A stretch of DNA of 32,000 nucleotides from an uncultured Opitutales bacterium (GCA_934613415.1 CAKTSY010000002.1:210001-242000); one strand, 5' to 3'; positions 1,571 to 23,809 are shown, counted from the first letter of the stretch. Numbers and translations are program-made. The notes: generated by a model not told the origin, from the sequence alone.

Positions 1571-1590
1571 TTCTTGCGTATTCTTGCGTA
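1571..1590. repeat. Perfect tandem 10-mer TTCTTGCGTA x2; further GCGTA copies at 1562-1566 and 1631-1635
   Basis: Read directly: agcgtaaaaaTTCTTGCGTATTCTTGCGTAttttt, about 90 nt inside the left junction. Confidence 0.9.
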
Positions 1591-1698
1591 TTTTTAAGGC
1601 ATTAAACACTATCAAAAACACCGTATTTTTGCGTAATTTTACAGAAAAATCCTTACCAAATTCTGACCATTTATTTTGACAGTATTTTAGGCGAATGT

Positions 1699-2181: not shown

Positions 2182-2655
2182 ACCTTTGTCCCTATGGCAT
2201 CTATACTACCACACCAGGCAAAAATACGCAACATTTTTATTTATTATTTTTAGACAATATTTCTCGTATAGAATTTTTCCTCCTTAATGTTGTCGATATT
2301 GTAGATAAATTACGAAAATATTACAATTACTACGTTTTTACGAAATTTGAATTAACGTGTAAAATTTGAATATGCAGATAGGAATGTAGCGATAGCCATA
2401 ATAGCTGTTAAAAATATAATTATTCTTGAACTTATGTTTGATGCTTTCGTTTGTTTTTCTATTGTGTTAGTTTTTCTAAGTTTTTAGACAATGTTTCAGA
2501 AGATTCATTTATTATTTTTGCGTGAAATTCTATCTTTTCATTAACTTCTCTTGATGATCTTGTGATGGAATCTCCACAGAATTTTAATCCATTTATTATA
2601 TCAATACTCATATTTTATCTTTATTTAGTGTGTTATTATCAAAACATTTTATCAT

Positions 2656-4326
2656 TTATAATTTTATTCTTTCTGTCGTCTTGTAAAAATATTTTATAGA
2701 TTCATCAAAAATTATATCTATATCTTTTATTGCGTATTTGAGTGTTAAGTCTTCCAATCTTTTTGTTCTGCTCAATCCTACATATGTTTGTCCACTGGCA
2801 AACGGATTGGCTCCATCGTAATAAACTTTGTCTATCGTCTTGCCTTGTGCCTTATGTACAGTTGTCGCAAATGCAAGCTCCAAAGGGATTTGGTATATCG
2901 TATCCTTTATCTTAGATTTTAGTATATTCTTCCCTTCTTCATCCTTTTTTACTTCGTATTCGTATAAATCCCATTTGTAAGGTGTAACTCTTTCTGTTTT
3001 TTTTGTACTTAGCATTTCCACATCTACATAACAATCGGCATCTCCATTTTCTTTTATATCTCTTACAATTCCCATTGTCCCGTTGTATATTCCGTCAGAC
3101 ATATTTATTACAAACATCACCAACGCATCTCTTTTTAATGTTAAACACTGGGAAAACAAAATATCTTTAAAAACAGGATCGCCTTGCTGGCATTTGATTT
3201 TTCCGTTGAGGCTTGTTATTCGATAGGCATGAAAATTATATTCCTTGCTTTTTAAATTACTTAACGCATCCTGATTTACCGCATCTACATCTTTATTTCT
3301 ATGCATGAGTTTTAATGCATTTTTTGGAGCTTGGGCGGATACTCTGTCATTAAAAAATTTTAGAGTTTGCGTCAAATTGTTCCTATCGCGAATGTTATCT
3401 AAAAGAGAACAAAATTCTTTGTCGGCTCTATGTTGGTCTTCTAAGAACAACATTTCTATTTTCATATTTCTAAATACATCTGCCTTAAAAAAATAATCAT
3501 ACTCTCCTTCGTTTTTCTTCCCTTTTAGGTTAAGTATTTTCCCGTATTCTTTTGTTATGACAGGAGGTAGTTGATATAAATCACCAGCTACGACTAATTT
3601 TATTCCTCCAAAAGCCTTGTTTGAATTTTTCGCTTTTCGCAAAATCTCGTCTATACAGTCCATCATATAGGCACTAACCATAGAAATTTCATCTATAAGA
3701 AGGTATTTTGTTATATTTATTTTATCTTTTGCTTTTTCTATGGAATTTTTTATATCTGCCTTGTCTAATAACTTCGGCGGCAATTTAAAGAAACTATGTA
3801 TGGTTGCTCCGTGTATAATACTTGCAGAAACACCCGTTGGAGCTAAAAGTACGCATCCTTTCAATCTTAAAGACAGATGCTCTATAATGTACGATTTACC
3901 GCTTCCGGCATTGCCTGTAATGAAAAGAACTGAGTTGTCTCCTTCATTCTTTTTTAAATATTCTGCAACCTTTTCATATGATGGGTCTTTATTTTCATAA
4001 AGTTGGATATTTCGCCGTAGGTCTTCGTTTTCTTTTTGCAGGGCCTTATAATCTAATTTTAGCACATTGAACTCTTCGGATATTCTTTTTAATTCTTCGG
4101 TGTATTCTATTTTTTCCGCAAGGAGTTTGTTCTTTGTTTCTTCTATTTCCTTGCATTTCAAATCAAATAATTCTTGTGCGCGCAGATTTATTTTTTCTTG
4201 CGAAAGTGTAGAAAAATATACATGCGCAATAAATACAAAGCCTCCTATTAAAACAAAAAGAATGAACATCGCGTCTCCGCTCATGGAGTGTTTTGTCGCA
4301 AAAATTATAAAGAATTGATGCATCAT
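2656..4326 (-). CDS. PIF1/RecD-family (SF1B) DNA helicase with an N-terminal transmembrane helix and coiled coil
   Basis: Helicase motifs: I ITGNAGSGKSY; Ia LLAPTGVSASIIHGATIHSFF; II LLIDEISMV; III VVAGDLYQLPPV; a QHR...LLDNIR signature; V/VI AFATTVHKAQGKTID. The N-terminus has AMFILFVLIGGFVFIAHVYF, then ~90 aa of K/E/L-rich heptad-like sequence. The start could be M1 or M15 (4284). Confidence 0.85.
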   Translation of the reverse strand: MMHQFFIIFATKHSMSGDAMFILFVLIGGFVFIAHVYFSTLSQEKINLRAQELFDLKCKEIEETKNKLLAEKIEYTEELKRISEEFNVLKLDYKALQKENEDLRRNIQLYENKDPSYEKVAEYLKKNEGDNSVLFITGNAGSGKSYIIEHLSLRLKGCVLLAPTGVSASIIHGATIHSFFKLPPKLLDKADIKNSIEKAKDKINITKYLLIDEISMVSAYMMDCIDEILRKAKNSNKAFGGIKLVVAGDLYQLPPVITKEYGKILNLKGKKNEGEYDYFFKADVFRNMKIEMLFLEDQHRADKEFCSLLDNIRDRNNLTQTLKFFNDRVSAQAPKNALKLMHRNKDVDAVNQDALSNLKSKEYNFHAYRITSLNGKIKCQQGDPVFKDILFSQCLTLKRDALVMFVINMSDGIYNGTMGIVRDIKENGDADCYVDVEMLSTKKTERVTPYKWDLYEYEVKKDEEGKNILKSKIKDTIYQIPLELAFATTVHKAQGKTIDKVYYDGANPFASGQTYVGLSRTKRLEDLTLKYAIKDIDIIFDESIKYFYKTTERIKL

Positions 4327-4704
4327 ATTTAGATTTTAATTAAAAAATAGAAGATAGTTACATTCGCATGCATCTGTTTTTTCTATTCATTGTCCCAAAG
4401 TATATGTAAATTTATGTGAAAAAGTCAAAGTAATTAAAAAGAATATGGAATAGTAGAAATTTTCAAAACCTCTTTTTTACAACAAAATCCCATAAACATT
4501 TTTATTCATAGTGACGACTTTTCTATCGTGTAACAAGCTATACCCACTAAGACTCTTCTTGATATATTATAGGTTTAATAATTATTTTATGCTATTTTTA
4601 TAAAAAGAGCAGTTATAAGAAAAGATGTCTTGAACTGGGCATAATAAAGATGCTAACATATATTACACTAAGACGCTTTAAAATGATTAAAAAAAGATGC
4701 TAAT

Positions 4705-6105
4705 ATGCCAAGAATAGGGATTACTGTTTATGATTTACTAATATCTTGTCCGGGAGATGTCTCTGATTATGTGAACATTGTAAACGAGTGTGTAGACGGA
4801 TTTAATCGTACATTAGGAGATATAAATAATGCTAAAATTGAAGCAAAGCATTGGTCAACGGATAGTTTCCCTGAGTCAGGAGATAAACCACAAGAGTTAT
4901 TAAACAAACAAATTGTGCGTGGTTGCGATGCGGCCATTGCAATTTTTTGGACAAAATTTGGGACTCCTACGGATAAATATGGCTCAGGTACTGAAGAAGA
5001 AATTGAAGAAATGTTATCTGCAAAGAAACAGATTTTCCTTTATTTTGTGAATGAGCCTATTAATCCTTCCGAATTGGACCAAAAACAATATAACAAGATA
5101 AAAGAATTCAAAGAGAAATATAAGGACAGGGGAATATATTGTGAAGTAAAAAATAAGGACGATTTTAGAACGCAATTCACTAATCATTTGACGATGTATT
5201 TCTTGCCAATAATAATGGGTAAAAACCAGAAAAATGCAGGAGTGGCAGCTCCCGTATTGCAAATACAAGATTATTATTCCGAAAAGAGAAATACGGCATC
5301 TATTCAAAATATCAAATTATTGGATTGGGAGTTAATAAAAGAAAAACATCAAAGTATTTGCACTCAAATAAAGAAATTAAATAAGGATTATTTACCTCAA
5401 CGTGTGCCAGCAAAAAAAGAAGTTAATGATATTGCAGGAATTTTAAAAATTCAAAATTCATTTTTGCCAACAAGATCAGATGTGTCGATATCTAAATCAA
5501 AGAAGGATACCATTTTAACATTTTGTCATCATAACTCTTTAGAAATCCCTGAACAATTTTGGAATTTGGGCGATTTAAAACAACAAACATCAAAATTGCC
5601 TTTTTCGCCATATTACAATAATAATTCGCTTGAAGGGACAGATGCGGAACAAGAACGTTATGAGGCCATAATAAACTTATATTCTGGCATTCTAAAATAT
5701 AACGAATATTATACATATTTTTCTCAAATAGAGAATCAAAGATTTGTATCATTGGTAATTGCAAATATCGGAGCGAGTTTTGATGAAGACATAGATGTCA
5801 AGTTGATTTTTGAAAAAGGTTGTATATTGGGACATCAAGACATCCCCTGCCCAGGACAACATATAATAGAAGATATATTAGAATCTCAATTCATAGAATC
5901 TATATATGGGATAGATGCGACCGACTCTATTTGTAAATATAGTGCTCATTCTATTATGCATGCTTATCTTGATCCGGATATTAAATATCCTTTCCCCCAA
6001 CTTTCCGAAAGTGAAAGATACGAAAATAGAAAACGTAGCTATAGAGACCATTTGGAAAATGTTTTATGTTATGAAATATACAAAAAAGGGGGAACGATAT
6101 TTTAA
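4705..6105 (+). CDS. Hypothetical protein, 466 aa; N-terminal ~170 aa resemble a TIR/DUF4062/nucleoside-deoxyribosyltransferase-like alpha/beta domain; the rest is unknown
   Basis: It is a long ORF divergent from the helicase. The N-terminal pattern is ITVYDLLISCPGDV ... CDAAIAIFWTKFGTPT..GSGTEEEIEEM..KKQIFLYF (strand, helix, strand, acidic G-[ST]-x-E-E, strand). I recognise no motif in the C-terminal 300 aa. The gene may be frameshifted at its 3' end (see findings). Confidence 0.6.
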   Translation: MPRIGITVYDLLISCPGDVSDYVNIVNECVDGFNRTLGDINNAKIEAKHWSTDSFPESGDKPQELLNKQIVRGCDAAIAIFWTKFGTPTDKYGSGTEEEIEEMLSAKKQIFLYFVNEPINPSELDQKQYNKIKEFKEKYKDRGIYCEVKNKDDFRTQFTNHLTMYFLPIIMGKNQKNAGVAAPVLQIQDYYSEKRNTASIQNIKLLDWELIKEKHQSICTQIKKLNKDYLPQRVPAKKEVNDIAGILKIQNSFLPTRSDVSISKSKKDTILTFCHHNSLEIPEQFWNLGDLKQQTSKLPFSPYYNNNSLEGTDAEQERYEAIINLYSGILKYNEYYTYFSQIENQRFVSLVIANIGASFDEDIDVKLIFEKGCILGHQDIPCPGQHIIEDILESQFIESIYGIDATDSICKYSAHSIMHAYLDPDIKYPFPQLSESERYENRKRSYRDHLENVLCYEIYKKGGTIF

Positions 6106-6371
6106 AATTTCACATACCATATCTAAAGCATAATACAAAAATGGCATTCCCTTCCGTTTTAATTCTAAAAAATCAACCAAAGAAGATAGAGTATGAAATT
6201 ACCTCAAAGCATATTTCTGATGTTATAAAAGGAGAAATCTCTTTTTCGCCTGAAAATCCAGTTTTATTGGAGCAGTGAGACAGAATCCGCAATTTATTTA
6301 GTGGCAAAGAGGGCTTGAAAGTTTTATGAAATGGTTTAAAGTCTATGGGTAGACTTATTAGAATAGGAAAT

Positions 6372-7976
6372 ATGGCAAAAAAGACTTCCGAAAAGGCTTT
6401 GAATATTGATAATATTCTGTTTAATTGCAGAGATATTTTGCGGGCGGCGCGCAATTCCGGATCGTTTTTTGAAAAACGCGATATGATGCTAACGCTCGTA
6501 TTCCTGCGTTTTATAGGCGAAAAATTTGAAGACGGCATTGAGAAACTCCGCCAAACATTAATCGAACAAGGCATTGACCCTGATGATGAAAACAACAAAG
6601 CCGCATTTTTTGACGATCCAAGTTTTGCGGACGGAACATATAATTTGGCGGTTGAAGCGCGTTGGGCAACCATTATAAACACACCTGCGCCCAATCTTAA
6701 TGTTGCGCTTGACACTGCTCTTCACAGCATTGCGACAGATTCAAAACAATTGAAAGGCTGTTTCGTAGAGGGTACTTTTACAACGCGCAATCTTGCTCCT
6801 AATGACATAAAGAAGCTTGTAGACGAGGTTAACAAAATTAGCCACAAAGCTTTTGGAGAGGAAAAAGACCTTATTGGGCGCGTATACGAATATTTTCTTA
6901 AAGAGTTTGCAGTAAATGCCACAAAGGAAGAAGGCGAATTTTATACTCCCCACGATGTTGTGCAGCTCATCGCATCCATGATAGAACCTTATGAAGGCAC
7001 ATTATATGACCCTGCTTGCGGTTCGGGCGGTATGTTTATTCAGAGCGCAGAACTTGTCAAATCGAGGCAAGGCGACATCAATCGAATCAACATATATGGT
7101 CAGGAAAAAGATGCCGCCACTTATCGTCTTGCAAAAATGAACCTTGCGCTTCGCGGGCTTAGCCACGATCTTGGAGAAACAAACGACTCTTCATTTACCC
7201 ACGATCTGCATAAGGGGCTTTATTTTGATTACATAATGGCGAATCCGCCATTCAATCTCAAGGGGTGGTATAACGATAACTTAAAAAATGATGCGCGTTG
7301 GGCTGATTATGCTGTGCCGCCGGAAAGCAATGCAAATTATGCTTGGATTTTACATATACTTTCCCACTTAAAACCTTCTGATGGGGTTGCCGGATTTTTA
7401 CTTGCAAATGGCGCGTTGAACGATAGCGATACCTTGGGAATTCGCCAAAAGCTAATTCAAAAAGACAAAGTTGAGGCAATCGTTGTTCTGCCGAGAGAAT
7501 TGTTTATCACTACAGATATCAGCGTTACGCTTTGGATTTTGAATCAGAATAAAAAAGGCGGCAAATACCACGGACGTAAACTGCGCAACCGCGAACATGA
7601 AATATTATTTATGGATTTACGCCAGTGGACGGAAAATCCCGTTAAAGGTGAAAACAAGAAGAAAGTTCGCTTGATAGCAGCGCAAATTGAAAAAGCGTCT
7701 AAAATTTACCATACTTGGCAAAGCGAAGGAACCAACGGAACAAAGTATGAAGTTCCTGAACTCTATCGCAGCGTGAATAAAACGGAAATAGAGCAAAAAG
7801 GCTGGGCGTTAACTCCAAGTAAATATATCGAATTCATCGACCACGACTTAGACATCGACTACAAAAAGGAAATGTCGCGCATTCAAGCTGAAATGCGTGA
7901 AATCCTAAAGCAAGAAAAGAAATCCCAGCAAATGCTGGAAGACGCATTTAAGGGTATAGGCTATGGCATTGAGTAG
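6372..7976 (+). CDS. hsdM: Type I R-M DNA methyltransferase subunit HsdM
   Basis: Motifs FYTPHDVV, YDPACGSGGMF and FDYIMANPPFN, plus NANYAWILHIL. The preferred start is the ATG at 6372 (MAKKTSEK), preceded by AGGAAA. The track ORF starts at 6345. Confidence 0.93.
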   Translation: MAKKTSEKALNIDNILFNCRDILRAARNSGSFFEKRDMMLTLVFLRFIGEKFEDGIEKLRQTLIEQGIDPDDENNKAAFFDDPSFADGTYNLAVEARWATIINTPAPNLNVALDTALHSIATDSKQLKGCFVEGTFTTRNLAPNDIKKLVDEVNKISHKAFGEEKDLIGRVYEYFLKEFAVNATKEEGEFYTPHDVVQLIASMIEPYEGTLYDPACGSGGMFIQSAELVKSRQGDINRINIYGQEKDAATYRLAKMNLALRGLSHDLGETNDSSFTHDLHKGLYFDYIMANPPFNLKGWYNDNLKNDARWADYAVPPESNANYAWILHILSHLKPSDGVAGFLLANGALNDSDTLGIRQKLIQKDKVEAIVVLPRELFITTDISVTLWILNQNKKGGKYHGRKLRNREHEILFMDLRQWTENPVKGENKKKVRLIAAQIEKASKIYHTWQSEGTNGTKYEVPELYRSVNKTEIEQKGWALTPSKYIEFIDHDLDIDYKKEMSRIQAEMREILKQEKKSQQMLEDAFKGIGYGIE

Positions 7977-9087
7977 GCTCAAACTTGGGGACTTGATTGA
8001 ATTATGCGAATCAAAGAATGAGGATTTGCAGTATAGCATCAATGATGTAAAAGGAATCTCCATCCAAAAAAAATTCATTGAAACAAAAGCTGATATGACA
8101 GATGTGTCTCTAACCCCATATCTCTTGGTAAGACCTGATGACTTTGCTTTCGTTACTGTTACATCTCGCAACGGAGAAAAAATCACTTTAGCACATAATA
8201 CAACAAATAAAACATATATAGTATCCTCATCTTATGTTGTATTCCATGTAAAAGACAAAGAACTCCTCTTATCTGATTTTCTATTTATGTATTTTAATCG
8301 GCCAGAATTTGACCGTTATTCGCGTTTTAATTCTTGGGGATCTGCGAGAGAAACTTTTAGTTGGGAAGATATGTGCGATATTGAAATCGATCTTCCACCG
8401 CTTCCAATTCAGCAGAAGTATGTTGATGTTTATAATGCAATGCTTGCGAATCAAAAAAGTTACGAACGTGGTTTGGACGATTTGAAGCTTGTTTGCGATG
8501 CCTATATTGAAGAGTTAAGGCGTAAAATGCCGTGCGAGACTATTGGAAAATATCTTGAAGAAGTAAGCGAACCAAATACAAACAAAAAATACACTGATGT
8601 ACAAGGTGTTGAATCTACATGTACTTTTATAGATACTCGTGCAAATATGCAGGGAGTTGACATTAGAAAATACACGATCGTGCGAAAAGGGACATTTGTA
8701 TATAATCCATCTCGAATAAATATAGGTTCAATTGCACTTTATCCTAATGAGTCACCTTGTATTGTTTCCCCTATGTATTCTGTATTTAAGATAACTTCTT
8801 TAGAAAAAATATTACCAGAATATTTGATGTTATGGTTTGAGAGAACTGAATTTCAAAGACAAACATGGTATTATGCTGCTGGTTCGGTAAGAGATACTTT
8901 TGACTTTAATTTAATGAAAGAGGTAAAAATTCCATTACCAACAATAGATATACAAAGCGATATAGTAAATATCTTTAACGTGTACAAAAATCGCAAAGCG
9001 ATCAACGAAAAGTTAAAAGTCCAGATAAAAAATATCTGCCCGATACTAATAAAAGGTTCAATCGAAGAAGCAAGGAAGGCTGGATAA
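7963..9087 (+). CDS. hsdS: Type I R-M specificity subunit HsdS with two target-recognition domains
   Basis: It overlaps the hsdM stop by 14 nt and sits between hsdM and hsdR. It has a two-fold repeated architecture with conserved helical spacers (LPPLPIQQKYV... and IPLPTIDIQSDIV...). It is AT-richer than its neighbours, as is typical of TRDs. Confidence 0.88.
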   Translation: MALSRLKLGDLIELCESKNEDLQYSINDVKGISIQKKFIETKADMTDVSLTPYLLVRPDDFAFVTVTSRNGEKITLAHNTTNKTYIVSSSYVVFHVKDKELLLSDFLFMYFNRPEFDRYSRFNSWGSARETFSWEDMCDIEIDLPPLPIQQKYVDVYNAMLANQKSYERGLDDLKLVCDAYIEELRRKMPCETIGKYLEEVSEPNTNKKYTDVQGVESTCTFIDTRANMQGVDIRKYTIVRKGTFVYNPSRINIGSIALYPNESPCIVSPMYSVFKITSLEKILPEYLMLWFERTEFQRQTWYYAAGSVRDTFDFNLMKEVKIPLPTIDIQSDIVNIFNVYKNRKAINEKLKVQIKNICPILIKGSIEEARKAG

Positions 9088-9090
9088 TTC

Positions 9091-12000
9091 ATGGCTAAGC
9101 TAAAAGAATTCAATAGACATTACTGCGAATCGGAATATGAGTATGCCTTTATTGCGTTCTTAGAGTCGGCTGACTGGATCTATTCTTCGGGCAATAAAAT
9201 AGCGCGTACAACAAAAAGAGATGTGTTAATCTCTGATGATTTCAAAAAATTCATAGCCAAGACAAATCCCGATTTAACCGAAGATGAAATCAATAGAATC
9301 TTCGATAATCTTCGTTTGATCGGCAGCGAAAGCGATTTTTCAACCTTGCACAAAGTCTATGGCTGGATGGTAAACGGAATTCAATTCACTCCCCAAAACG
9401 GACTGGCAAGAATGATTCCGTTAATCGATTTTGAAAGTCCTGCCAACAACATCTTCCGCGTAGTAAATCAGTTTGTTGTAGAATACACAAACAATGGGCA
9501 GAAAGAAACCCGTAGGCCGGACATTCTTTTGTTCGTAAACGGTATGCCGCTATGCGTAATTGAGCTGAAAAATCCTGCGGACGCAAACGCAACTATATTT
9601 GATGCTTGGGAGCAAATCAACATACGCTACTGGCGAGACATTCCGCATCTTTTGCATTACTGCCCGTTGGCTTGCATCTCTGACGGTGTAAAAACGAGGC
9701 TGGGAACTGTTCGCACGCCTTATGAGCATTTTTACGCTTGGAGACGCGTAAACGACGGAGATAATGTTTCTACGCTTCCGTTTGAAGAGACTGAAACGAT
9801 GATAAAAGGAGTCTATGCGCCTTCACGTTTCCTTGAAATTTTCAGAGATTACATTTATTTCCAAGATGCCATTTACGACAGCGACGAGAGGGAAATTGTA
9901 TGCCGCTATCCGCAATTTTTCGCGGCAAAACTTTTAAAGCAGAGCATCGTAAAATCAGTTGTAGAAAAAAGCGGCAAAGGCGGAACGTACTTTGGCGCGA
10001 CAGGTTGTGGCAAAACCTACACAATGGCATTCTTGGCACGCCAACTCGCCCTTCGGTGTACCGATATTCCCGAAATAGGCTCTCCGACAATTATTCTAAT
10101 CGTAGACAGAGACGACCTGCAAAAACAAGGCGCAAAGCTCTTTACAAAAAGTAAGGAATTTTTGAATCTTGGCGAAGTATCCATTGTAAAAAATAGAGCC
10201 CATTTAAGACAAGAGCTCGCCGCAAGGCAAAGCGGCGGTTTCTATATCTGCACCATCCAAAAATTCTGCGACCGAAAGGATGATAAAATTGGGCTTATAA
10301 ACGATAGGCGTAATATTATATGCTTTTCAGACGAAGCCCATCGAAGCCAAATCGAGCATTCAAAGAAGATTCAGTTCAGCAAAGACGCTGACGAGAATAT
10401 GAAGGCAATGGTTTCTAAGCCTTACGCAAAGGTCTTAAAAGAAGCCTTCCCTCGGGCTACTTTTGTTGGTTTTACGGGGACGCCCATCGCGGAAACTTAT
10501 CAAACTTTCGGCAATGAAATTGACCGTTATACAATGGACCAGGCTGTTGCGGACGGTTTGACGGTTTCGATAAAGTATCATCCAAGGATAGCAAAAATCT
10601 TGCTTGATAATAAAAAAATACAGGAGATTGAAGCCTATTACAAAAAATGCGCCGACGACGGAGCAACTCTTGAAGATGTAGAGGCAAGCAAAAAAGCAAT
10701 GAGCTCTATGGAGCTTATTCTGGGCGAACCTTTGCGCTTGGAACGGCTTGCCGTAGATATTCACGACCATTATCTTTCCTCTTGCGCAAACGATCCCGAC
10801 AGGATCCAAAAAGCAATGGTCGTTTGCTCAAACAGAAAAATTGCCTATGCCTTATTAAAAGAGTTCAGGGCTAAATATCCGGAATGGTTCGAAGAAAAGA
10901 AATCGCCTGATGGTATTTTCGTAACGGAAGATGAGCTTAAGGAATTAAAGCCGATGCCGTTTATCGCAATGGTATCAAGCGTGGGAAGCAATGATGAGGC
11001 TGAAATGTACAACTATCTTGGCGGCGTTCGCAATGACAAGCGTTCGGAAGAATTGGATGCGGCTTTCAAACAGGAAAAATCGAATTTTCGCATTGTTATT
11101 GTGGTTGATATGTGGATTACCGGTTTCGATGTGCCTTCTCTAACATATTTATATAACGATAAACCTCTAAAAAAGCATCTGTTAATACAAACGATAAGCA
11201 GAGTTAACAGAAAATATCCGGGTAAAGAATATGGCATGATTATAGACTATATAGGCATTCGCGATAATATGCGGGAAGCTATGAAGGTCTATGGCGGCAA
11301 TACTTCTGTTGCTCCGACATCAGACGATGTGGAACAAGCGACGCAAATTTTCAGGGAAGAGCTTGAAATACTAAAAAAACTATTTGTTAATTATGATTTG
11401 ACGCCGTTTTTAGATCCTAATTGCGATCCGATTGAACGCTACAAATTGCTCGCAAAAGCTGCCGAATATGTGTTTTTGTCCACGCAGAGTTTGCGCTTGT
11501 CCGATGGCGATATGGCTCGGAATGTTTCATTTAAAACTTATTTCTTAAAAACCGTAAAAAGAATGAGAGCCGCTTATGACGTTTGCCAGCCTTCGGGAAA
11601 TCTTGGAGAAGAGGAATCCGCGCTGGCACAGTGTTTTATGGCAATAGCGGGTTTTGTCCGCAAAATGAACGGAACAAGCGAAGTTGATGCCGATACAATG
11701 AACCGCACAGTTTCAAAAATGGTGGAAGAAGCCTTAAAATACAATCAAGTGGAAAGTATTCTTGCGGGCGGCGAAGAGGAAGATATCTTCTCTCCCGAAT
11801 ATTTTGAAAAGCTGTCTGACGTTAAAATGCCGGCGACAAAATTAGAGCTTCTGGTTAAAATGCTGCGCAAGGAGATTAAAGAGTACGGAAAAGTAAATCA
11901 GGTTGCCGCCAAGAAATATCAAGAAATGTTGGAAAAAACAATTAAGGAATATCACGAAAGGAGAAAACATCTTGATATTGAAGAAGCGGGCGAAGCCCAA

Positions 12001-12420
12001 GAACGCGCGTCGGAAGACATCCTCCAAAGTGCTACAAAACAAGCTTTAGACATTCTCTCACAAATGAAAGAGAGTAGAGAAAGTTTTAGAAAGATAGGCT
12101 TAACTTTTGAAGAAAAAGCTTTTTACGACATTTTAATCGCATTGCGCGACCAGTATAATTTTGAGTACGGAACAGATAAAAATTTAGGCGGTGTCATTAT
12201 TAACGATAAATGCAAAATACTGGCTAAAAAAATTAAGGAAATAATCGACACAAAATCTTCATTCGCGGATTGGCTTAATAACCAGAATGTCCGCAACCAA
12301 CTAAAACTTGAAATCAAAATTTGTTTAGTCCAAAGCGGATATCCACCGCAATATAGTCCGGAAGTATTCAGCAAAGTTATGGAGCAAGTCGAGAATTTTG
12401 AGGAAAATTCAGCAACTTGA
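9091..12420 (+). CDS. hsdR: Type I restriction endonuclease/translocase subunit HsdR
   Basis: It has a PD-(D/E)xK nuclease motif RRPDILLFVNGMPLCVIELK, Walker A GATGCGKTYT and a DEAH box FSDEAHRSQ. The C-terminal region (EKAFYDIL...) is typical of HsdR. Confidence 0.93.
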   Translation: MAKLKEFNRHYCESEYEYAFIAFLESADWIYSSGNKIARTTKRDVLISDDFKKFIAKTNPDLTEDEINRIFDNLRLIGSESDFSTLHKVYGWMVNGIQFTPQNGLARMIPLIDFESPANNIFRVVNQFVVEYTNNGQKETRRPDILLFVNGMPLCVIELKNPADANATIFDAWEQINIRYWRDIPHLLHYCPLACISDGVKTRLGTVRTPYEHFYAWRRVNDGDNVSTLPFEETETMIKGVYAPSRFLEIFRDYIYFQDAIYDSDEREIVCRYPQFFAAKLLKQSIVKSVVEKSGKGGTYFGATGCGKTYTMAFLARQLALRCTDIPEIGSPTIILIVDRDDLQKQGAKLFTKSKEFLNLGEVSIVKNRAHLRQELAARQSGGFYICTIQKFCDRKDDKIGLINDRRNIICFSDEAHRSQIEHSKKIQFSKDADENMKAMVSKPYAKVLKEAFPRATFVGFTGTPIAETYQTFGNEIDRYTMDQAVADGLTVSIKYHPRIAKILLDNKKIQEIEAYYKKCADDGATLEDVEASKKAMSSMELILGEPLRLERLAVDIHDHYLSSCANDPDRIQKAMVVCSNRKIAYALLKEFRAKYPEWFEEKKSPDGIFVTEDELKELKPMPFIAMVSSVGSNDEAEMYNYLGGVRNDKRSEELDAAFKQEKSNFRIVIVVDMWITGFDVPSLTYLYNDKPLKKHLLIQTISRVNRKYPGKEYGMIIDYIGIRDNMREAMKVYGGNTSVAPTSDDVEQATQIFREELEILKKLFVNYDLTPFLDPNCDPIERYKLLAKAAEYVFLSTQSLRLSDGDMARNVSFKTYFLKTVKRMRAAYDVCQPSGNLGEEESALAQCFMAIAGFVRKMNGTSEVDADTMNRTVSKMVEEALKYNQVESILAGGEEEDIFSPEYFEKLSDVKMPATKLELLVKMLRKEIKEYGKVNQVAAKKYQEMLEKTIKEYHERRKHLDIEEAGEAQERASEDILQSATKQALDILSQMKESRESFRKIGLTFEEKAFYDILIALRDQYNFEYGTDKNLGGVIINDKCKILAKKIKEIIDTKSSFADWLNNQNVRNQLKLEIKICLVQSGYPPQYSPEVFSKVMEQVENFEENSAT

Positions 12421-12636
12421 CATATTTTGCATAAGTAGCACTTTTTAACTGCCAATGTAGGAATTCCCAATCTGTAAATGGCTGGGGAAGCAATGATAAT
12501 GCCGTAAAAGAAGGCTTGAGAATTTTGTCGGAATACAAGCTTCCAGACGGATTGAAAATCTGGATTATCGCCGAGTGGGACAGAAGCGCAACTACGCTAC
12601 TTTTCCCAGAGACTACTAAAAGATTCAGCCTGCTGG

Positions 12637-12879
12637 TTATTCCGCGATTATAAAGTAGCTGGAGTCTTTAAGCTTTTCGGCAATATGTTCAGCGGATAGT
12701 TCCTTACTATTTTCATCGGCCAAATTATCTGAAATACTTGGTGCCGATTCTAACAGAATCAATACATAGGAACTTTTTAAGGCGTAATTCACGTTTTCCG
12801 CGAATGTCCCAACGATTTCCCGATATAAAAAACGCCCGAAATTCGCCATATTACTGGATTCTCGAGCGTCTCGATTCAA
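12637..12879 (-). CDS. Small hypothetical ORF, possibly the remnant of a longer gene
   Basis: ORF-track entry with a TTG start. The same frame stays open upstream to ~12966 with no ATG. No motif recognised. Confidence 0.25.
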   Translation of the reverse strand: MNRDARESSNMANFGRFLYREIVGTFAENVNYALKSSYVLILLESAPSISDNLADENSKELSAEHIAEKLKDSSYFIIAE

Positions 12880-13010
12880 AAAGTATGGGACATTTGAAAA
12901 ATGCCTGTCGTAAGAAGAAAGCGGTCTGCCGAACGCCCCTGCTGTTTTGTTGGGGTTAATAGATTCCTTTTAGCCCCCCGTATCGCTATGTCCGTTTATA
13001 GTTCACCGCA

Positions 13011-13036
13011 GGCAAATAGGAGAAATAGGTAAATAG
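13011..13036. repeat. AAATAGG heptamer array: 2 perfect copies plus 1 copy matching 6 of 7
   Basis: GGCAAATAGGAGAAATAGGTAAATAG. Its reverse complement, CTATTTACCTATTTCTCCTATTTGCC, matches the array at 13368-13430. Confidence 0.85.
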
Positions 13037-13215
13037 TGCATACTCTTAAAATTGATGAGGGCGTTTTTGCGAGTATTTCGCAAGGCAAAAATGGGAAGGG
13101 TTTGGTAAGAATTTTACCGAATTTTCGGTATATTATTAACGACTTACAAAACTTTTCCGATTTCCATAAGAATGAAAGCAAAACGGCAATATACTAAGCA
13201 AGAAAAACTTATCCG

Positions 13216-13287
13216 CGCCCCCACCGTGAATCGAACACGGATTTGGCGTTTAGGAAACGCTCGTTCTATCCGTTGAACTACAGGGGC
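13216..13287 (-). tRNA. tRNA-Arg, anticodon CCU, complete, no encoded CCA
   Basis: Reverse complement: GCCCCTG-TA-GTTC-AACGGATA-GAAC-G-AGCGT-TTCCTAA-ACGCC-AAAT-CCGTG-TTCGATT-CACGG-TGGGGGC-G. This folds as a cloverleaf with a 7-bp acceptor stem (two G-U pairs), 4-bp D stem, 5-bp T stem and T-loop TTCGATT. The anticodon stem has an A27.C43 mismatch. Confidence 0.85.
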
Positions 13288-13367
13288 GGGATAAAGGAAA
13301 TATGAGACCATAGCTTGGCTTGAAAGTCAACCATAATCCCGATATTTGCGTATATAAGTATCTTTTT

Positions 13368-13430
13368 GCCTATTTACCTATTTGCCGAGTTGGTTAGCGT
13401 CAATACCTATTTCTCCTATTTGCCTATTTT
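13368..13430. repeat. CCTATTT heptamer array, 5 perfect copies, inverted relative to 13011-13036
   Basis: Copies lie at 13369-75, 13377-83, 13406-12, 13415-21 and 13423-29. The last copy abuts the stop codon of the DUF3987-like gene. Confidence 0.85.
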
Positions 13431-14893
13431 CAGAACGGCATATCGTCGTCATCATCGACTTCTATTCCAAGCGCCTTTTTAGCCTCGGAGATTCTATCTT
13501 TCAAGACAACGTATCGCCCTTTACCCTTTTTTAGGATTTCATAAAGATTGGGGAACGTATGCACGATAAATTCCACCCTTTCAGTTCGCAAACTGGAATA
13601 TTGGTCAAAAAAGCTAATCTTCTTATAGAAACCGTCGTTTTGGCGAATCATAGCGTCCATTTTTGCTCTGTCGTTTTCGATTTCTGGAAGCATTCCGCTT
13701 GAGAACAAAACCACCGAAACGCAGATTGAATACGACACCACCCTGCATGCGCGTTTTGCGATGTTGGCGGTGATTCGGTCCGCGCCTTCAGCCTGCGCGA
13801 AAATAACCGCAAGCCTGATTGCGTTTTCCCTTGCCTTGCCAAGCAAAGAAGCCTGCGTGCGCAGTTTGCCGTTCATAAGATGCGTGTTGAATGCGTCGAA
13901 GTCCCAGAAATACTCGAAGACGTCTTGGTCGGTGTCAAACCATACTGGCAGGCCTTTCTTGCGGGTTTGGTAGGTTTGAGCAAGAAGGTTTTCCCATTTG
14001 AGAATTACGGCTTCGTCAAGCGGGATAATTTCTTTCGAGTCTGGAATGGCCTTTGGAGCGCCTTTGCAGTAGAGGAATCTTCCAAGAAACCCGCTGCCGA
14101 TAAAGCTGCCTTTGTTCTTTGAAACGATGTTGTCGATGACGTCGTTTTGCACCATCCAAAGCAGGGAAATGCAGGGATTGGGAACGCTTGAAATCCCGTT
14201 TACAATTCGGTTGTGCTTTATGGGCTCGCCGCACCAGCCGCTGTTTAGCGTTTCGGTGTCGTCGCCTTGCTTGCGATAGTTGCCCGCCACAATGTAGATG
14301 CTGTCGCGGGCTTCCTCGCATACCGAAAAAATTTCGCCGCCGCTTGCTTCCATCGCCTTTATCATGGCTTCCGACGTTGAATTTTTCACGATGAAGTCGG
14401 GGTTTCTCGGGGGCTTGGGAGTGTCCGCAATTTCGTCGTCAAGGCCCAATTTGTCCTCGCCGTTAAGCTTGTCCTGCATGAGCTTTGCCTTCGCTTTCTT
14501 GAATTTCTCAAGCTCCTTTTTGTATTCGGAGATTTCGTCCAAAACCCTTCTTTCCAAATTGGAGAAAAGGGCGCGAATGCTTGCGCTTTTGCCAGTGGAG
14601 CTTTCGCCCACGCCTAGGACAAAGATATTCCCTGTTTGCGTGTATCCGCCGCTTACTGCGTTTTTCGCCTTGAACACTCTGCCCATAGCGCCGCTTAAAA
14701 TTCCGCAGGCGCAGAAGCAAAGAAGCTCCATTGGCAGATTTCTGCCAACGGAATACGTTCTTGCGACGTCGCGGATAGGTTTCGGGAAGGCGTCAATGGG
14801 GCATTCGCTTTCGTAAAACTCTTTGTAGGCTTCCGAAAGCGTCTCCATGGTTGCAAAAAATTGCGGAGTTTTTTGTGCCACGAACCTAGACAT
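13430..14893 (-). CDS. DUF3987-like (YfjI-type) putative helicase/replication protein of integrative elements
   Basis: PIDAFPKPIRDVARTYSVGRNLPMELLCFCACGILSGAMG...NIFVLGVGESSTGKSA matches the DUF3987 pattern as I remember it. The preferred start is MSRFVAQK at 14893, which overlaps the upstream stop as ATGTCTAG. The track ORF extends to 15019. Confidence 0.75.
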   Translation of the reverse strand: MSRFVAQKTPQFFATMETLSEAYKEFYESECPIDAFPKPIRDVARTYSVGRNLPMELLCFCACGILSGAMGRVFKAKNAVSGGYTQTGNIFVLGVGESSTGKSASIRALFSNLERRVLDEISEYKKELEKFKKAKAKLMQDKLNGEDKLGLDDEIADTPKPPRNPDFIVKNSTSEAMIKAMEASGGEIFSVCEEARDSIYIVAGNYRKQGDDTETLNSGWCGEPIKHNRIVNGISSVPNPCISLLWMVQNDVIDNIVSKNKGSFIGSGFLGRFLYCKGAPKAIPDSKEIIPLDEAVILKWENLLAQTYQTRKKGLPVWFDTDQDVFEYFWDFDAFNTHLMNGKLRTQASLLGKARENAIRLAVIFAQAEGADRITANIAKRACRVVSYSICVSVVLFSSGMLPEIENDRAKMDAMIRQNDGFYKKISFFDQYSSLRTERVEFIVHTFPNLYEILKKGKGRYVVLKDRISEAKKALGIEVDDDDDMPF

Positions 14894-15674
14894 TTTCCAC
14901 CTCTCCCCAAGCTGTGTTGCCGTTTTGGCATTGTGCGATGAGCGTCTGAGAAATTTCGGAATCCTCAAACGGCTTGTAATGCCTGAACGAGAAAACCGAC
15001 TCCTCTTTCGTCCCCACAAGCACCGACATTATGTTTGCATAAACACCGATAGCCTTTCCGCCCATGCACCATTTTGCGGGGTGAATCCTTTTGCTCCAAA
15101 ACATCGGCTTGTCGAAGTGGTGGATCAAGACCATTGCAAAGTTGTGCTTCGATTTTAGCCCGTTTATTTTGCAAAAGAGGTCGGCAACTGCCGCATGGTC
15201 TGAAAAGTTGCAATGCACAAACGACGACAGCGAATCCACAATTACCACATCGTACTTGCCCGCGCTTAAAGAAGCGTCCAGTTTCGATATGAATTCGTCC
15301 ACCGAATAATATCGGCCTGTTTTGCAGCGGAAGCGGAAATTATTTTCCATAATTTCGCAAAAGTCCGCCTTTTTATCGAGTTCAAATTGCGAAACGATAT
15401 CGTCTAAGTAGATCTTCTCGTCGGCAATCGGGTTTTCGGAATGGAGCAAGAGGGTCTTGGCGGGGCGGACAATATCAAGCCCCAATGTTTTTTCGCCAAG
15501 GGCGAGGCTTGCGGCAAGCTGCATTGCAAGAACGCTTTTGCCGATTCCGCTCGCGCCCGAAATTACCCACGTCTGCCCTTTGCTTAAAAAGTCCTTCTCG
15601 ATTATAACGCCGTCAAAACCGAAAATGGATTCGTTTTCTTCGGCTAAAATTTGGCTTATCGTGCGAATTCTCAT
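14886..15674 (-). CDS. RecA-like AAA ATPase (AAA_25/RepA-like)
   Basis: It has Walker A GASGIGKS and Walker B VVIVDSLSSF, followed by LIHHFDKP. Its start overlaps the upstream HTH gene stop by 1 nt (TAATG). Confidence 0.75.
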   Translation of the reverse strand: MRIRTISQILAEENESIFGFDGVIIEKDFLSKGQTWVISGASGIGKSVLAMQLAASLALGEKTLGLDIVRPAKTLLLHSENPIADEKIYLDDIVSQFELDKKADFCEIMENNFRFRCKTGRYYSVDEFISKLDASLSAGKYDVVIVDSLSSFVHCNFSDHAAVADLFCKINGLKSKHNFAMVLIHHFDKPMFWSKRIHPAKWCMGGKAIGVYANIMSVLVGTKEESVFSFRHYKPFEDSEISQTLIAQCQNGNTAWGEVENV

Positions 15675-15931
15675 TAGATTTCTCCTTTCTTCGCGCTTTT
15701 GGCGGGGCGGACTATAAAGCAGTGGTCAAGCAGGACGTCGCAATCGCTTTTCTTGTAGCGAATGCACTTGCCCGAAAGACGGTAGCTCGGCAGTTTGCCC
15801 TGTCTGCGGAGCTGCTCAATAAAGGTTGTGCCAATATTGAGATACTCCGCCACCTCTGCGCGTGTAAAAAGCCTGTCGCTTGCGTCAGGCTGCGTTAATG
15901 TTTGAGTTTTTGCGGATTTTTTCTTTTCCAT
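15674..15931 (-). CDS. Excisionase/AlpA-type helix-turn-helix DNA-binding protein
   Basis: LFTRAEVAEYLNIGTTFIEQLRRQGKLPSYRLSGKCIRYKKSD is typical of the HTH_17/Xis family. The preferred start is MEKKKSAK at 15931; the track ORF starts at 16057. Confidence 0.7.
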   Translation of the reverse strand: MEKKKSAKTQTLTQPDASDRLFTRAEVAEYLNIGTTFIEQLRRQGKLPSYRLSGKCIRYKKSDCDVLLDHCFIVRPAKSAKKGEI

Positions 15932-16343
15932 GCAGAATGTCCGCGTGTCAAATTTTTCAAAAATTAATAGCCGCAAAATTGCGAAAAAAATCGAATTGGA
16001 AGGCGAAAAAAATAGTTGGGAAAGTGGTTTCCCAAAGAAGGCGGAAAAACGACACAAAAATAAAAGTGTGTCGATTTTGGATTATATGGCGCAAAAATAT
16101 TCGGCAAAAATTGCTTGGTCGGGGGAAATGTTTCACTGGTGATACAAATGGGAATTCCAAGATATAAACTTCCATTTTCCGCAAAATTTACCGCGTGTTC
16201 CGTTTTTTTAGATCATTTATTTATCCTATTGAAAAACGGCCAAATAGAATTTCTTAAATGGTCTATTATCAAATGGTAATAGGATTAAAAATAAATGGAT
16301 TGTTCAGCTTGACTTGAAACGCTTTTTATACATTTTTCGTTTC

Positions 16344-17060
16344 ATGATAAAGCGGACAGTAGAGGAACAAATTCTTAGAACAATCAGTTTTTTGGAAAGC
16401 GGCAGGGTGTTTTCGTCAACAGATTTTGCGGACATCGCAAACCAAAACACAATCAGAACGGCGTTAAGGCGTCTTACTCTGGCAAAGAAAATCGACGCCC
16501 TTGGGCATTCTCTATATTATAAGCGAATCTGCACAAAAGAATTTCCCTATGGATATAGGCCAAAACATCAATCCATTGCCAATGCCATAGCGCGAAGATT
16601 CTCTTGGAAGATTTTTCCGACGCTGTCTTACACGTTTGCGTATTTTTCGTTGCGCAAAGACGGCGACCGCATATTCCCAAGCTCGGGGCCAAATAAAAAA
16701 TTTGAGTTCAATTCTTTCGCATTTCAGGGAATCGTTGAATTTAGGCATATCCCGCTTAAATTGTCCCGAATTGCCGACAAGAAAGCCTTTATGTACGTTC
16801 AAGCCCTTGTAGCCTTTGGCGAAGATTCCGAAGAAATGAAGCGCATATTTGCAAAGACTTCCACAGAGGATTTGAAAACAGTCATCAGAAAAATAACCTA
16901 TGCGCCGCTAAGAATCCAGAATGTGTTTTTAAAAGAGCTTAAATCGAGGGATAACGGCAAGTCGAATTCAGGAGATGCGAATGCTGAAAACATCAACAAC
17001 GCCTTTAATAAAGTGCAAGAAAAGCGAAAGCTTGCCAGAATATTTCGCAGCTTGTCATAG
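16344..17060 (+). CDS. AbiEi-antitoxin-like/DUF6088-like putative transcriptional regulator
   Basis: The N-terminus, IKRTVEEQILRTISFLESGRVFSSTDFADIANQNTIRTALRRLTLAKKIDALGHSLYY, resembles the winged-helix AbiEi_4/DUF6088 pattern. No AbiEii partner gene is seen. The start is either 16314 or 16344. Confidence 0.5.
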   Translation: MIKRTVEEQILRTISFLESGRVFSSTDFADIANQNTIRTALRRLTLAKKIDALGHSLYYKRICTKEFPYGYRPKHQSIANAIARRFSWKIFPTLSYTFAYFSLRKDGDRIFPSSGPNKKFEFNSFAFQGIVEFRHIPLKLSRIADKKAFMYVQALVAFGEDSEEMKRIFAKTSTEDLKTVIRKITYAPLRIQNVFLKELKSRDNGKSNSGDANAENINNAFNKVQEKRKLARIFRSLS

Positions 17061-17134
17061 CTTGTACGTTACTTGTATGTTACTTGTATGTTTTGGAGCG
17101 ATTATTCACGTTTCCCAAATCGACATATTCTCAT

Positions 17135-17154
17135 ATTCCGCACATGTGCGGAAT
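17135..17154. terminator. Perfect 20-nt palindrome ATTCCGCACATGTGCGGAAT between convergent genes; either a hairpin terminator or a protein-binding site
   Basis: Read directly. It lies between the stop of the DUF6088-like gene (17060) and the stop of the integrase gene (17170). No strong T-run follows it. Confidence 0.4.
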
Positions 17155-17169
17155 TTGGAATGCCCGCTG

Positions 17170-18441
17170 TTATTCTTCTGGCAGAATATCAAAATATTTT
17201 ATGGCGTCTTTTTCGCGGGCAAGGCCGTTGTAGTGCTGTTTTAGGACATCTACGGCGTGTCCCATTTGCTCGGCGGTTAGGTATGCGTTCTTTGTCAGCG
17301 CAAGGTAGTATGTCGCCGCTGAATGGCGCAGTCCGTTCTTTATCCAGTTGCCTTTGCCGAGGCTCTCGTGAAGCTTTTTTAGCACTGGAACTTTTCGCCT
17401 TGTAAGGATCTTTTTCTTTGTGCCGAGATCCCAGACGTACGGTTCGAGCCATTTCGCCAAGTTTTCAGGAATCTTTACGATTCTGCGCGATGCCGTTTTT
17501 GTTATTTCGCTGTCGAGTATGATTTCTCGGTCGTCGAGCCTTATTTTGTCCCAAGTCAGCCTTTTTAGCTCGGCGTTGCGTATTCCTGTAAAGGCGGCGA
17601 TGGCCGTAAATGCGCGGATTTCGCTTTGCGGCGGCGTGGAGTTTAGAATTTTTCGCACCTCGTCGGGCGTGAATATTTGGGGCGTTCTGCCCCTTGCTCG
17701 CCAGCTTTCCACTTTCTCAACGGGGTTGACGTCGAGCCAGTCCTGCATCTTGCAAAATTTGAAGAAGGAATAGAGCGTGCGCCTGTATTCGTTTCTCGAG
17801 TAAATCCCCAAGTCTTTCTGCGTTTCCTTGAAAACCTTCATGGGGCGTCCGTCAACTGTCAGCGTGTCGCTGTCGTCGTATTCGCGCTTTTTGAGGTTTA
17901 TGAGCCATTGGAAGATTTCCCTGCCAGTTATGAGCGAGACTATTCTCTCCTTGCCGAAATCGCCCATGAAGCGGGCAAGAGTGCGCTCGACCCCTGTGAC
18001 ATACTCGCTCGACAGCTCCTTTTTCAAGAGCGTATAGCAGTATTTGTCGATGGCGAAGTCCAACCTTGCGGAGCGTTCCTTTAGCTTTGCGAGCGATTTG
18101 TACTCCTCTATGGCTTGGCTTAGGCTGATTCCGAGCGACTGCAAATCATTCGTAAGCTTCACGTAGGTGAGGACGGCGTTTGTAAGCGACACCCGCAAAG
18201 GGGAAAGCAGCATCTTTGCCTCGACCAGTTCGCGCCTGTCGTTTGGCGAAATCCTGTCGGCTTCGACGCCGAGCTTTTCGTCGTAAACATTTTTCTCACG
18301 GAAAAATTCGAGGGCTTCGGCTTCGGTTGAAAACCTGCGCGCCCATCGTTTTTGCTTTTCTGTGTCGAAATAGTAAACGACCCAGCGCTCGCGGTTTTTC
18401 TCTGCAACTTTTTTTGGAAAGGAAGGTGATCTATTCTTCAT
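17170..18441 (-). CDS. int: Tyrosine site-specific recombinase (integrase)
   Basis: The C-terminal catalytic residues are recognisable: GIRNAELKRL (Arg), GLRHSAATYY (His-x-x-Arg) and GHAVDVLKQHY (His...Tyr). The gene is 100 nt from the right junction. Confidence 0.9.
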   Translation of the reverse strand: MKNRSPSFPKKVAEKNRERWVVYYFDTEKQKRWARRFSTEAEALEFFREKNVYDEKLGVEADRISPNDRRELVEAKMLLSPLRVSLTNAVLTYVKLTNDLQSLGISLSQAIEEYKSLAKLKERSARLDFAIDKYCYTLLKKELSSEYVTGVERTLARFMGDFGKERIVSLITGREIFQWLINLKKREYDDSDTLTVDGRPMKVFKETQKDLGIYSRNEYRRTLYSFFKFCKMQDWLDVNPVEKVESWRARGRTPQIFTPDEVRKILNSTPPQSEIRAFTAIAAFTGIRNAELKRLTWDKIRLDDREIILDSEITKTASRRIVKIPENLAKWLEPYVWDLGTKKKILTRRKVPVLKKLHESLGKGNWIKNGLRHSAATYYLALTKNAYLTAEQMGHAVDVLKQHYNGLAREKDAIKYFDILPEE

Positions 18442-18540
18442 GCAAAATCCTTTCCTGTCAAAAATGCGAAATGGTAAGGGATTGCCTTACCGCTGCGAAA
18501 AAATCGCGCAAGTTGCTCGTAATTACATATGTTCTATTAG

Positions 18541-18581
18541 TTCCTAAACGCCAAATCCGTGTTCGATTCACGGTGGGGGCG
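18541..18581 (+). pseudogene. 3' half of the tRNA-Arg(CCU) gene, from anticodon loop to discriminator; putative attR
   Basis: TTCCTAA-ACGCC-AAAT-CCGTG-TTCGATT-CACGG-TGGGGGC-G. Together with the next 17 nt it is identical to the island-borne copy: 18541-18598 equals the reverse complement of 13199-13256. Confidence 0.8.
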
Positions 18582-18603
18582 CGGATAAGTTTTTCTTGTT
18601 ATT

Positions 18604-23732: not shown

Positions 23733-23809
23733 TGGAGCGGGCAATGAGTCTCGAACTCACAACCTCGACCTTGGCAAGGTCGCGCTCTAGCCAATTGAGC
23801 TATGCCCGC
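23733..23809 (-). tRNA. tRNA-Gly, anticodon GCC, CCA encoded
   Basis: Reverse complement: GCGGGCA-TA-GCTC-AATTGGCTA-GAGC-G-CGACC-TTGCCAA-GGTCG-AGGTT-GTGAG-TTCGAGA-CTCAT-TGCCCGC-T-CCA. Confidence 0.9.

Follow-up and report, generated by a model that had tools for sequence, protein, structure and literature searches.

Results

A tRNA-Arg(CCU) gene split by an integrative element

The window, by which we mean the whole 32,000-nt stretch that was analysed (uncultured Opitutales bacterium, GCA_934613415.1 CAKTSY010000002.1:210001-242000), holds a tRNA-Arg(CCU) gene in two separated halves, the integrative element of 17,059 bp (1482-18540) that lies between them and, within that element, a complete tRNA-Arg(CCU) gene. 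The features to which we refer below are the following.

1349-1443, plus strand: U1, the region upstream of the split 5′ half, of element type, with TTGACTTT at 1401-1408 and TGGTCTCAT at 1421-1429
1444-1481, plus strand: displaced tRNA-Arg(CCU) 5′ half, the bacterial side of attL, ending in the core TTCCTAA (1475-1481)
1482-1698, plus strand: p arm, the element side of attL; homologous arms follow split 5′ halves in relatives
1699-2181, minus strand: orf160, conserved and always beside the p arm
2656-12420: variable cargo of low GC (Pfam, PHROGs), comprising the next three entries
2656-4326, minus strand: PIF1/Dda-like SF1 helicase
4705-6105, plus strand: orf466, an open reading frame of 466 aa
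6345-12420, plus strand: hsdM/S/R, a type I restriction-modification system
13015-13037, plus strand: AAATAGG iteron-like repeats downstream of S2
13199-13214, minus strand: sequence just downstream of S2, identical to the sequence after the attR 3′ half
13215-13287, minus strand: S2, the complete element-borne tRNA-Arg(CCU) (ARAGORN, Rfam, cloverleaf)
13288-13366, minus strand: U2, the region upstream of S2, with a promoter-like block
13369-13429, minus strand: AAATAGG iteron-like cluster between the DUF3987 gene and U2, conserved in L008, L010, L013, L025 and L045
13430-15019, minus strand: DUF3987 helicase/primase-like replication protein (Pfam PF13148, E=1.6e-42; PHROG DNA helicase/primase)
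14886-15674, minus strand: AAA_25 (RepA/DnaB-like) ATPase (Pfam PF13481, E=2.1e-21; PHROG primase/helicase families)
15674-16057, minus strand: HTH_17 excisionase-like protein (Pfam PF12728, PHROG excisionase, NCBIfam)
16314-17060, plus strand: DUF6088 protein (Pfam PF19570)
17170-18441, minus strand: tyrosine integrase, 423 aa (Pfam PF00589, PHROG integrase)
18442-18540, plus strand: q arm, the element side of attR, conserved between the integrase start and the core
18541-18598, plus strand: bacterial side of attR, consisting of the core TTCCTAA (18541-18547), the displaced 3′ half and 17 nt downstream

The ends of the element are marked by TTCCTAA, the sequence of the anticodon loop, which occurs three times in the window, once per tRNA site. 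Past 1481 unrelated AT-rich DNA directly follows the TTCCTAA of the 5′ half, and the DNA before 18541, where the 3′ half opens with TTCCTAA, is likewise unrelated. Because the same heptamer ends one half and starts the other, with unrelated DNA inward of both, we conclude that 1482-18540 is an insertion with a shared core of 7 bp; the bases flanking this core differ between the reconstructed attP and attB. Neither ARAGORN nor Rfam called a tRNA at 1444-1481 or at 18541-18598, and shuffled sequence gave zero chance matches to either half. Joining 1444-1481 to 18548-18581 in silico produces an attB that ARAGORN reads as an intact tRNA-Arg(cct), and the attP formed by joining the ends of the element contains no tRNA according to the same program. 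The canonical arrangement, in which an island restores the gene that it enters, is not what is found here: the sequence beyond both element-side junctions is unrelated to tRNA.

Each att arm contains one copy of GCAAGTTGC, 62 nt to the right of the core in the p arm (1543-1551) and 25 nt to the left of it in the q arm (18508-18516), and this motif is conserved in the att arms of relatives. A tandem pair of ATTCTTGCGT also lies in the p arm (1570-1589). Both GCAAGTTGC and the ATTCTTGCGT pair are candidate protein-binding sites of attP.

On the right, the flank beyond attR is homologous to the attR flank of L025; a 125-aa open reading frame in it, for which the gene callers choose a shorter start, had no match on look-up, and the tRNA-Gly(GCC) at 23733-23809 (minus strand) is ordinary and bears no sign of insertion. 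The left flank (2-1021, minus strand, and 1022-1318) encodes the N-terminal part of a second type I restriction-modification methylase (hsdM), which shares 33-35% identity with the one on the island. Nearly the same hsdM recurs in L024, close to tRNA-Arg(CCU) sites and an integrase of the 46% type, as well as in L017 and L031, and for that reason the left flank is probably another island rather than core chromosome. An empty attB for the window's host site was not found among about 23 contigs, including by a search via the neighbouring AXE1 gene.

The carried tRNA gene

The earlier note on this DNA had described a full-length, oppositely oriented tRNA-Arg(CCU) on the island, and its measurements of that gene stand. 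ARAGORN predicts a 73-nt tRNA-Arg(cct) with a full cloverleaf at 13215-13287 (minus strand), and the Rfam tRNA model RF00005 scores 54.4 bits at 13216-13287, against a gathering score of 29; with these two programs S2 is the only intact tRNA-Arg(CCU) found in the window. It is placed between the replication genes and the cargo, 5.2 kb from attR and in the opposite orientation. S2 matches the split 5′ half at 37 of 38 positions, the lone difference being A27 in place of G27, and the inverted segment 13199-13256, comprising the anticodon loop, the 3′ half and 17 nt downstream, is identical to 18541-18598 over its entire length (58/58). Upstream, where the note had judged about 80 nt to be roughly three-quarters identical, 59 of 79 nt (75%) agree between the two copies, and TTGACTTT and AAGCTATGGTCTCAT are common to both.

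A promoter-like block within U2 consists of TTGACT (13325-13330), a 17-nt spacer and TGG+TCTCAT (13302-13310), and ends 14 nt before the mature 5′ end. In an alignment of 29 upstream regions the block is conserved in at least 90%. A generic sigma-70 scan flagged no promoter upstream of S2, so it is this conservation that identifies the block as the putative promoter of S2. On the other side, beyond 13199, the DNA (cttagtatattgcc...) is element sequence homologous to that of L013, L025 and L045. L010, L013, L016, L025, L045, L058, L059 and L063 have an equivalent of S2 in this position, after the DUF3987 gene.

The AAATAGG clusters stand inverted on either side of the carried tRNA, and have counterparts in L013 at 6640-6740 and about 7070-7115. 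They may be replication iterons for the DUF3987 and AAA_25 proteins, or else arm-type sites of the integrase; the repeats are absent from both att arms of the element.

Genes and cargo of the element

The gene order inward from attR is integrase, DUF6088, HTH_17, AAA_25 and DUF3987, followed by the tRNA, the cargo and orf160. Gene callers start the DUF3987 gene at 14893, which gives a protein of 487 aa. The HTH_17 protein scores 33.6 bits against the NCBIfam model TIGR01764 ('excise', cut-off 28.8) and is a candidate recombination directionality factor. Searches with PHROGs, Pfam and NCBIfam returned no capsid, tail, terminase or lysis genes in the element; judged by its gene content it is a non-phage element, and one that probably replicates itself. 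Neither orf160 nor orf466 has a match in these three collections. The attL side, made up of a split 5′ half, a p arm and an orf160 homologue, recurs in L018, L021, L022, L034, L037, L038, L040, L043 and L046, at all of which tblastn finds orf160 adjoining the p arm at 61-92% identity; this fixed position beside attL suggests a role in recombination or regulation.

The same integrase module is accompanied by other cargo in L008, L010, L013 and L063, and the genes found between the conserved ends in relatives include type I restriction-modification systems, Fic, DUF4268, methyltransferases and BrxL. Defence-type genes dominate the cargo of the sister elements (L063, 18268-21272; L059, 17636-21269; L010, 15537-21272), with BrxL, DUF4268, a SWI2/SNF2 restriction enzyme, methyltransferases, Fic and HipA among them, which suggests that the tRNA-Arg elements are exchangeable defence islands.

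The design recurs in gut Opitutales

The same design is found across gut Opitutales, in dozens of genomes and metagenome contigs whose integrases are 46-100% identical. A scan of reference genomes with the 5′ half gave 33 loci, all from gut or rumen Opitutales (Verrucomicrobiota) and including the cultured Intestinicryptomonas porci and Puniceicoccaceae bacterium Marseille-Q1082, and an integrase identical to the window's is encoded on at least 23 human-gut metagenome contigs. Identical integrases occur at other host sites and with other cargo (L008, L010 and L013); the design is retained with integrases of 79-91% identity (L025, L058, L063 and L064) and with diverged ones (56% in L059, 52% in L060 and about 46% in L024 and L035). 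In the 52% and 46% groups the tRNA directly follows the integrase gene. The conserved order, seen in the window, L010, L013, L025, L058 and L063, runs from an inverted attR (q arm, core, 3′ half) through the integrase, the replication genes and the full tRNA-Arg(CCU) to the cargo. The q arm between the integrase start and the core is conserved in L008, L010, L013, L021, L057, L058, L063 and L064, and wherever both sites are visible (nine loci) the carried tRNA is inverted relative to attR. L034 contains both ends in a single 8-kb locus, with attL and the carried tRNA 2.7 kb apart. Whole elements could not be rebuilt in isolate genomes, as 8-kb loci from the same contigs did not overlap. A relative in Verrucomicrobiae, 30% identical, is of the canonical kind and lies beside a complete tmRNA gene.

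In L021 (1-3100, a sheep-rumen MAG contig) the integrase, identical to the window's at 420 of 423 residues, reads away from a p arm and orf160 about 900 nt off, and the q arm is joined to a barely recognisable 3′-half-like sequence; this may be a variant with a flipped, or deleted, integrase module.

Related genomes contain one to three intact tRNA-Arg(CCU) genes. Since two or three are present in some of them (BRZ_A bin45, HGM23545 and Marseille-Q1082), the carried copy is not always the sole one, and tRNA-Arg(UCU) might serve as an alternative reader of AGG.

Alleles and origin of the tRNA halves

Positions 27 and 43 of S2 correspond to 13261 and 13245 in the window. The earlier note had contrasted A27 opposite C43 with the G27:C43 of the split gene. 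In the clade, among 26 intact copies (L010-L063), which represent only seven distinct sequences and hence are not independent counts, A:C occurs 14 times, G:T 10 times, A:T twice and G:C never. A27 opposite C43 is the commonest natural state in the clade and no defect. The A:C and G:T combinations are two isosteric wobble-type pairs and not Watson-Crick pairs. Because the G27:C43 of the displaced halves is never seen in intact genes, these halves may not have been an original pair.

The disrupted gene was probably not a pristine host gene. U1 is 81-83% identical to the upstream regions of element-borne tRNAs (L001, L008, L010, L025 and L032) and aligns with such regions back to a degenerate copy of the iteron region. 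Being of element type, U1 indicates that the disrupted gene itself probably came from an earlier element. L044 has an intact tRNA with an element-type promoter beside a native-type downstream flank.

Comparison with L010, which occupies the same host site as the window and is 96% identical in nucleotide sequence over the flank and module, separates the history of the carried gene from that of its site. In L010 the internal tRNA combines G27 and T43 with a CGTGG/CCACG T-stem, and the attR 3′ half is of the window's type, with C43 and CCGTG/CACGG. Because the carried 3′ half can thus differ from that of the host, the tRNA gene travels with the element; the sequence downstream of the internal tRNA is also homologous among elements in different hosts. 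In the window and L025 the host lineage's 3′ half agrees with the carried allele, for which reason we ascribe the 58-nt identity to shared descent or conversion; the agreement would also fit an origin of the gene by capture from such a host. Capture from a previous host, which the note had offered as its alternative, is supported by the several host-like alleles in which carried copies occur and by the carried 3′ half of L010, foreign to its host site. Such a capture is compatible with replacement of the split gene by the carried one.

Decay of displaced halves and reuse of carried copies

In the attR 3′ halves of L058 (6693-6760), L064 (about 9830-9900) and L017 (6806-6870) the T-loop and acceptor arm have been altered by substitutions and indels, and excision at these loci could therefore no longer restore the gene; the attR 3′ half of L008 is truncated. 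The carried copies of L058 and L017 are intact, and the L064 contig ends short of that position. Carried copies are intact wherever no other element has hit them.

Where another element has done so, the result is recognisable. In L008, L014, L019 and L020 the arm of a second family and a 37-40% identical orf160 homologue come after the DUF3987 gene and a 5′ half of element type. The half-gene after DUF3987 in L008 could have been taken for a rearrangement, and it proved to be such a nested second element. L039 has the second-family arm and orf160 homologue after a different upstream region that is not of element type. In L021, L043 and L046 it is a p arm with orf160 that comes after the element-type 5′ half, and L035 has a q arm of the 46% type attached to a 3′ half whose downstream sequence is of element type. 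Carried copies evidently serve as attB for other elements, which leads to nested arrays.

In L045 and L057 a q arm meets a p-type arm; such junctions represent either tandem arrays or the excised form. A scan of metagenome contigs for the specific q-core-p pattern gave one true junction, that of L057 (1.2 kb of sequence); a scan of viral contigs with a less specific q-core-p pattern gave eight matches, all of which we rejected as chance occurrences inside an unrelated viral coding gene without element proteins. A stretch of about 35 nt, gggtcaacaccaaaggttgtggaataggttgatt, abuts the att-site flanks in two genomes (L035, about 500-560; L045, about 780-800) and may be the end of a small inserted element.

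Discussion

Proposed mechanism

We propose that a non-phage element splits tRNA-Arg(CCU) at its anticodon loop and compensates for the damage with a full tRNA gene of its own, and we consider this account probable. The tyrosine integrase would recombine a tRNA-free attP, composed of the q arm, TTCCTAA and the p arm, with the anticodon loop of tRNA-Arg(CCU). Because only the 7-nt loop is shared, the cut leaves the 5′ half of the target at attL and its 3′ half at attR, with no tRNA at either junction. Compensation would then come from the complete tRNA-Arg(CCU) at 13215-13287, driven by its own promoter-like block, and this gene would have to be expressed, charged and needed. A demand for it is suggested by the flanking host genes, in which 28% of the Arg codons are AGG. 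Direct repeats would lead to loss of the integrase module or the cargo, which may be why the carried gene is maintained in inverted orientation. The proposal draws together the anatomy of the locus, the 7-bp core, the tRNA-free junctions and the recurrence of the design across the integrase clade, along with the movement of alleles with the element, the decay of displaced halves beside a conserved carried copy and the reuse of that copy as attB. The earlier note had already read the island copy as a replacement for the gene disrupted by integration, and the split in the anticodon loop, the tRNA-free junctions and the family-wide design uphold the greater part of that reading; its suggestion of an addiction-like arrangement fares less well, as set out below.

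Comparison with known systems

The logic resembles that of tRNA-dependent lysogeny, here in an island with defence genes. In actinobacteriophages of subcluster K4, such as Fionnbharth, and of cluster L, integration through an attP-attB core of about 10 bp disrupts tRNA-Lys(TTT), and lysogens are viable only if the phage provides a tRNA of that isotype (Guerrero-Bustamante and Hatfull, mBio 2024, PMC10865867). The prophage Lj965 of Lactobacillus johnsonii has been proposed as a further case (PMC10865867), and the strategy has so far been demonstrated experimentally only in some temperate phages. As in the phages, the attB of a tyrosine integrase overlaps a tRNA gene, in the window that of a PF00589 integrase and the anticodon loop of tRNA-Arg(CCU); a short core and tRNA-free junctions are combined with a complete internal tRNA, in the window and in its relatives; and the tRNA of the element has the same anticodon as the target and its own promoter, which in the window is putative. 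Both systems also have related integrases at gene-restoring sites, namely Boilgate among the phages and the 30%-identical, tmRNA-adjacent relative here. Going by the sequence, the window shares the three sequence-level criteria of the phage system and departs from it in that the element is not a temperate phage.

The differences are no less instructive. The window's element is non-phage, with replication genes and defence cargo, and resides in a gut member of the Verrucomicrobiota. Whereas the tRNA of Fionnbharth is not closely related to that of its host, the carried tRNA here is nearly identical to the target (37/38 and 58/58), and because of this near-identity it is a bona fide attB that further elements hit. 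The position and inverted orientation of the carried gene are, moreover, conserved here.

Canonical islands and prophages that target tRNA and tmRNA genes regenerate the gene from a contiguous 3′ segment, rarely a 5′ one (PMC4383910; PMC6563490), with that segment located at attP and a long direct repeat flanking the element (Williams, 2002, as cited in PMC6563490; Islander, PMC4383910). The window resembles the islands so described in its tyrosine integrase, in an anticodon-loop crossover, in the position of the integrase beside one att site and in a displaced fragment at the far end. It differs from them in that its direct repeat is only 7 bp and its compensating gene is separate, complete, 5.2 kb from attR and oppositely oriented. 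Other elements, for which PMC6563490 cites Zhao and Williams (2002), recombine with the 5′-distal part of a tRNA gene; like them, the window's element supplies a promoter and the 5′ portion of a tRNA gene. In the cases outlined there, however, the 5′ part joins the 3′ part of the host gene at an att junction, whereas both flanks of the window's carried tRNA are element DNA conserved across hosts. A limited literature search found no published account of a split tRNA together with a carried, attB-renewing copy in islands or in Verrucomicrobiota.

Alternative explanations

The addiction module raised by the earlier note would have the island inactivate a host gene and supply its only copy, so that its own loss would be lethal or costly. 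The target is indeed split, the island holds the window's sole intact copy, AGG is used often, and at L058, L064 and L017 decay of the 3′ half means that excision could not restore the gene. In the window, however, both halves are intact and their precise joining in silico regenerates the tRNA gene, so that excision as such would impose no inherent cost; an excisionase-like protein is among the element's products, and several relatives have extra intact copies. Dependence would arise only where the displaced halves have decayed, as at those three loci, or after an imprecise deletion, which looks like a slow evolutionary ratchet and not a post-segregational penalty, and we regard an addiction module as unlikely. 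A related idea is that the carried gene is mainly a fresh attB for the stacking of related elements, its function as a tRNA being secondary. That carried copies have been split by other elements (L008, L014, L019 and L020; L021, L043 and L046; L035), and that the window's own target has an element-type upstream region, would both be expected if this were so. It is nonetheless hard to see what a resident element gains from being hit by a competitor, and an attB needs only the anticodon stem-loop, yet the full cloverleaf and the promoter block have been kept; as nesting follows naturally from any faithful copy of the target, we give a landing-pad role little credence.

The window might alternatively have begun as a canonical element with the gene restored at attL, in which a later inversion between the 5′ halves (1365-1481 and 13250-13366) moved the 3′ half inside. 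A 117-nt inverted repeat does flank the cargo and a 58-nt perfect inverted repeat the integrase module, a single inversion at the core would give an intact gene at attL, and L021 resembles a variant with a flipped integrase module. The same arrangement is, however, found far beyond the window: the p arm and orf160 lie at attL in ten independent genomes, the internal tRNA follows the replication genes in more than ten, and the integrase with the q arm at attR is a conserved end in many. With conserved element DNA downstream of the internal tRNA across hosts, no orientation polymorphism among about 23 contigs that have the window's integrase, and a nested second element accounting for every 5′ half that lacks a 3′ half beside replication genes, an origin by rearrangement is very improbable; inversion or a shufflon was discarded as the main explanation on the conserved ends, the element DNA downstream of the tRNA and the single orientation. 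Finally, the carried tRNA could boost AGG decoding, or replace tRNA cleaved by anticodon nucleases, independently of the integration site, a thought encouraged by the proposal that phage tRNAs act against tRNA-targeting defences (PMC10865867). The comparison of island and host codon usage that the earlier note had suggested bears on this directly. In the integrase/replication module 24% of Arg codons are AGG, but the share is at least as high in the flanking host genes (28%) and lower in the cargo (11%), and we dismissed codon supply because the element uses AGG no more than host genes do. Furthermore, the carried tRNA has the anticodon of the split gene and is nearly identical to it in every family member examined. 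Because it always matches the gene that the integrase splits, compensation is a better description than general supply, for which we see scant likelihood.

Implications

Returning to the compensation that we propose, a broader and more tentative reading, which we hold to be possible but do not favour, is that tRNA-Arg(CCU) has been taken over by mobile DNA in gut Opitutales. Each arriving element would split the resident copy and install its own, which becomes the next landing site, so that nested arrays of defence islands build up, the displaced halves decay into irreversible host dependence and alleles are moved between lineages. The target in the window would then represent one turn of this cycle.

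Island finders that seek a regenerated tRNA and a long direct repeat would misplace or miss such elements, and the integrase-attP-tRNA cassette is a possible integration tool for Verrucomicrobiota. If our proposal is correct, the strategy of splitting a tRNA gene and carrying one's own would extend from some actinobacteriophages to non-phage islands of a little-studied gut phylum, with a consequence that is undescribed for the phages, namely that a faithful copy renews the attachment site. Defence islands would thereby be captured serially, one nested in another, and a gene of essential type would gradually shift from the chromosome to mobile DNA.
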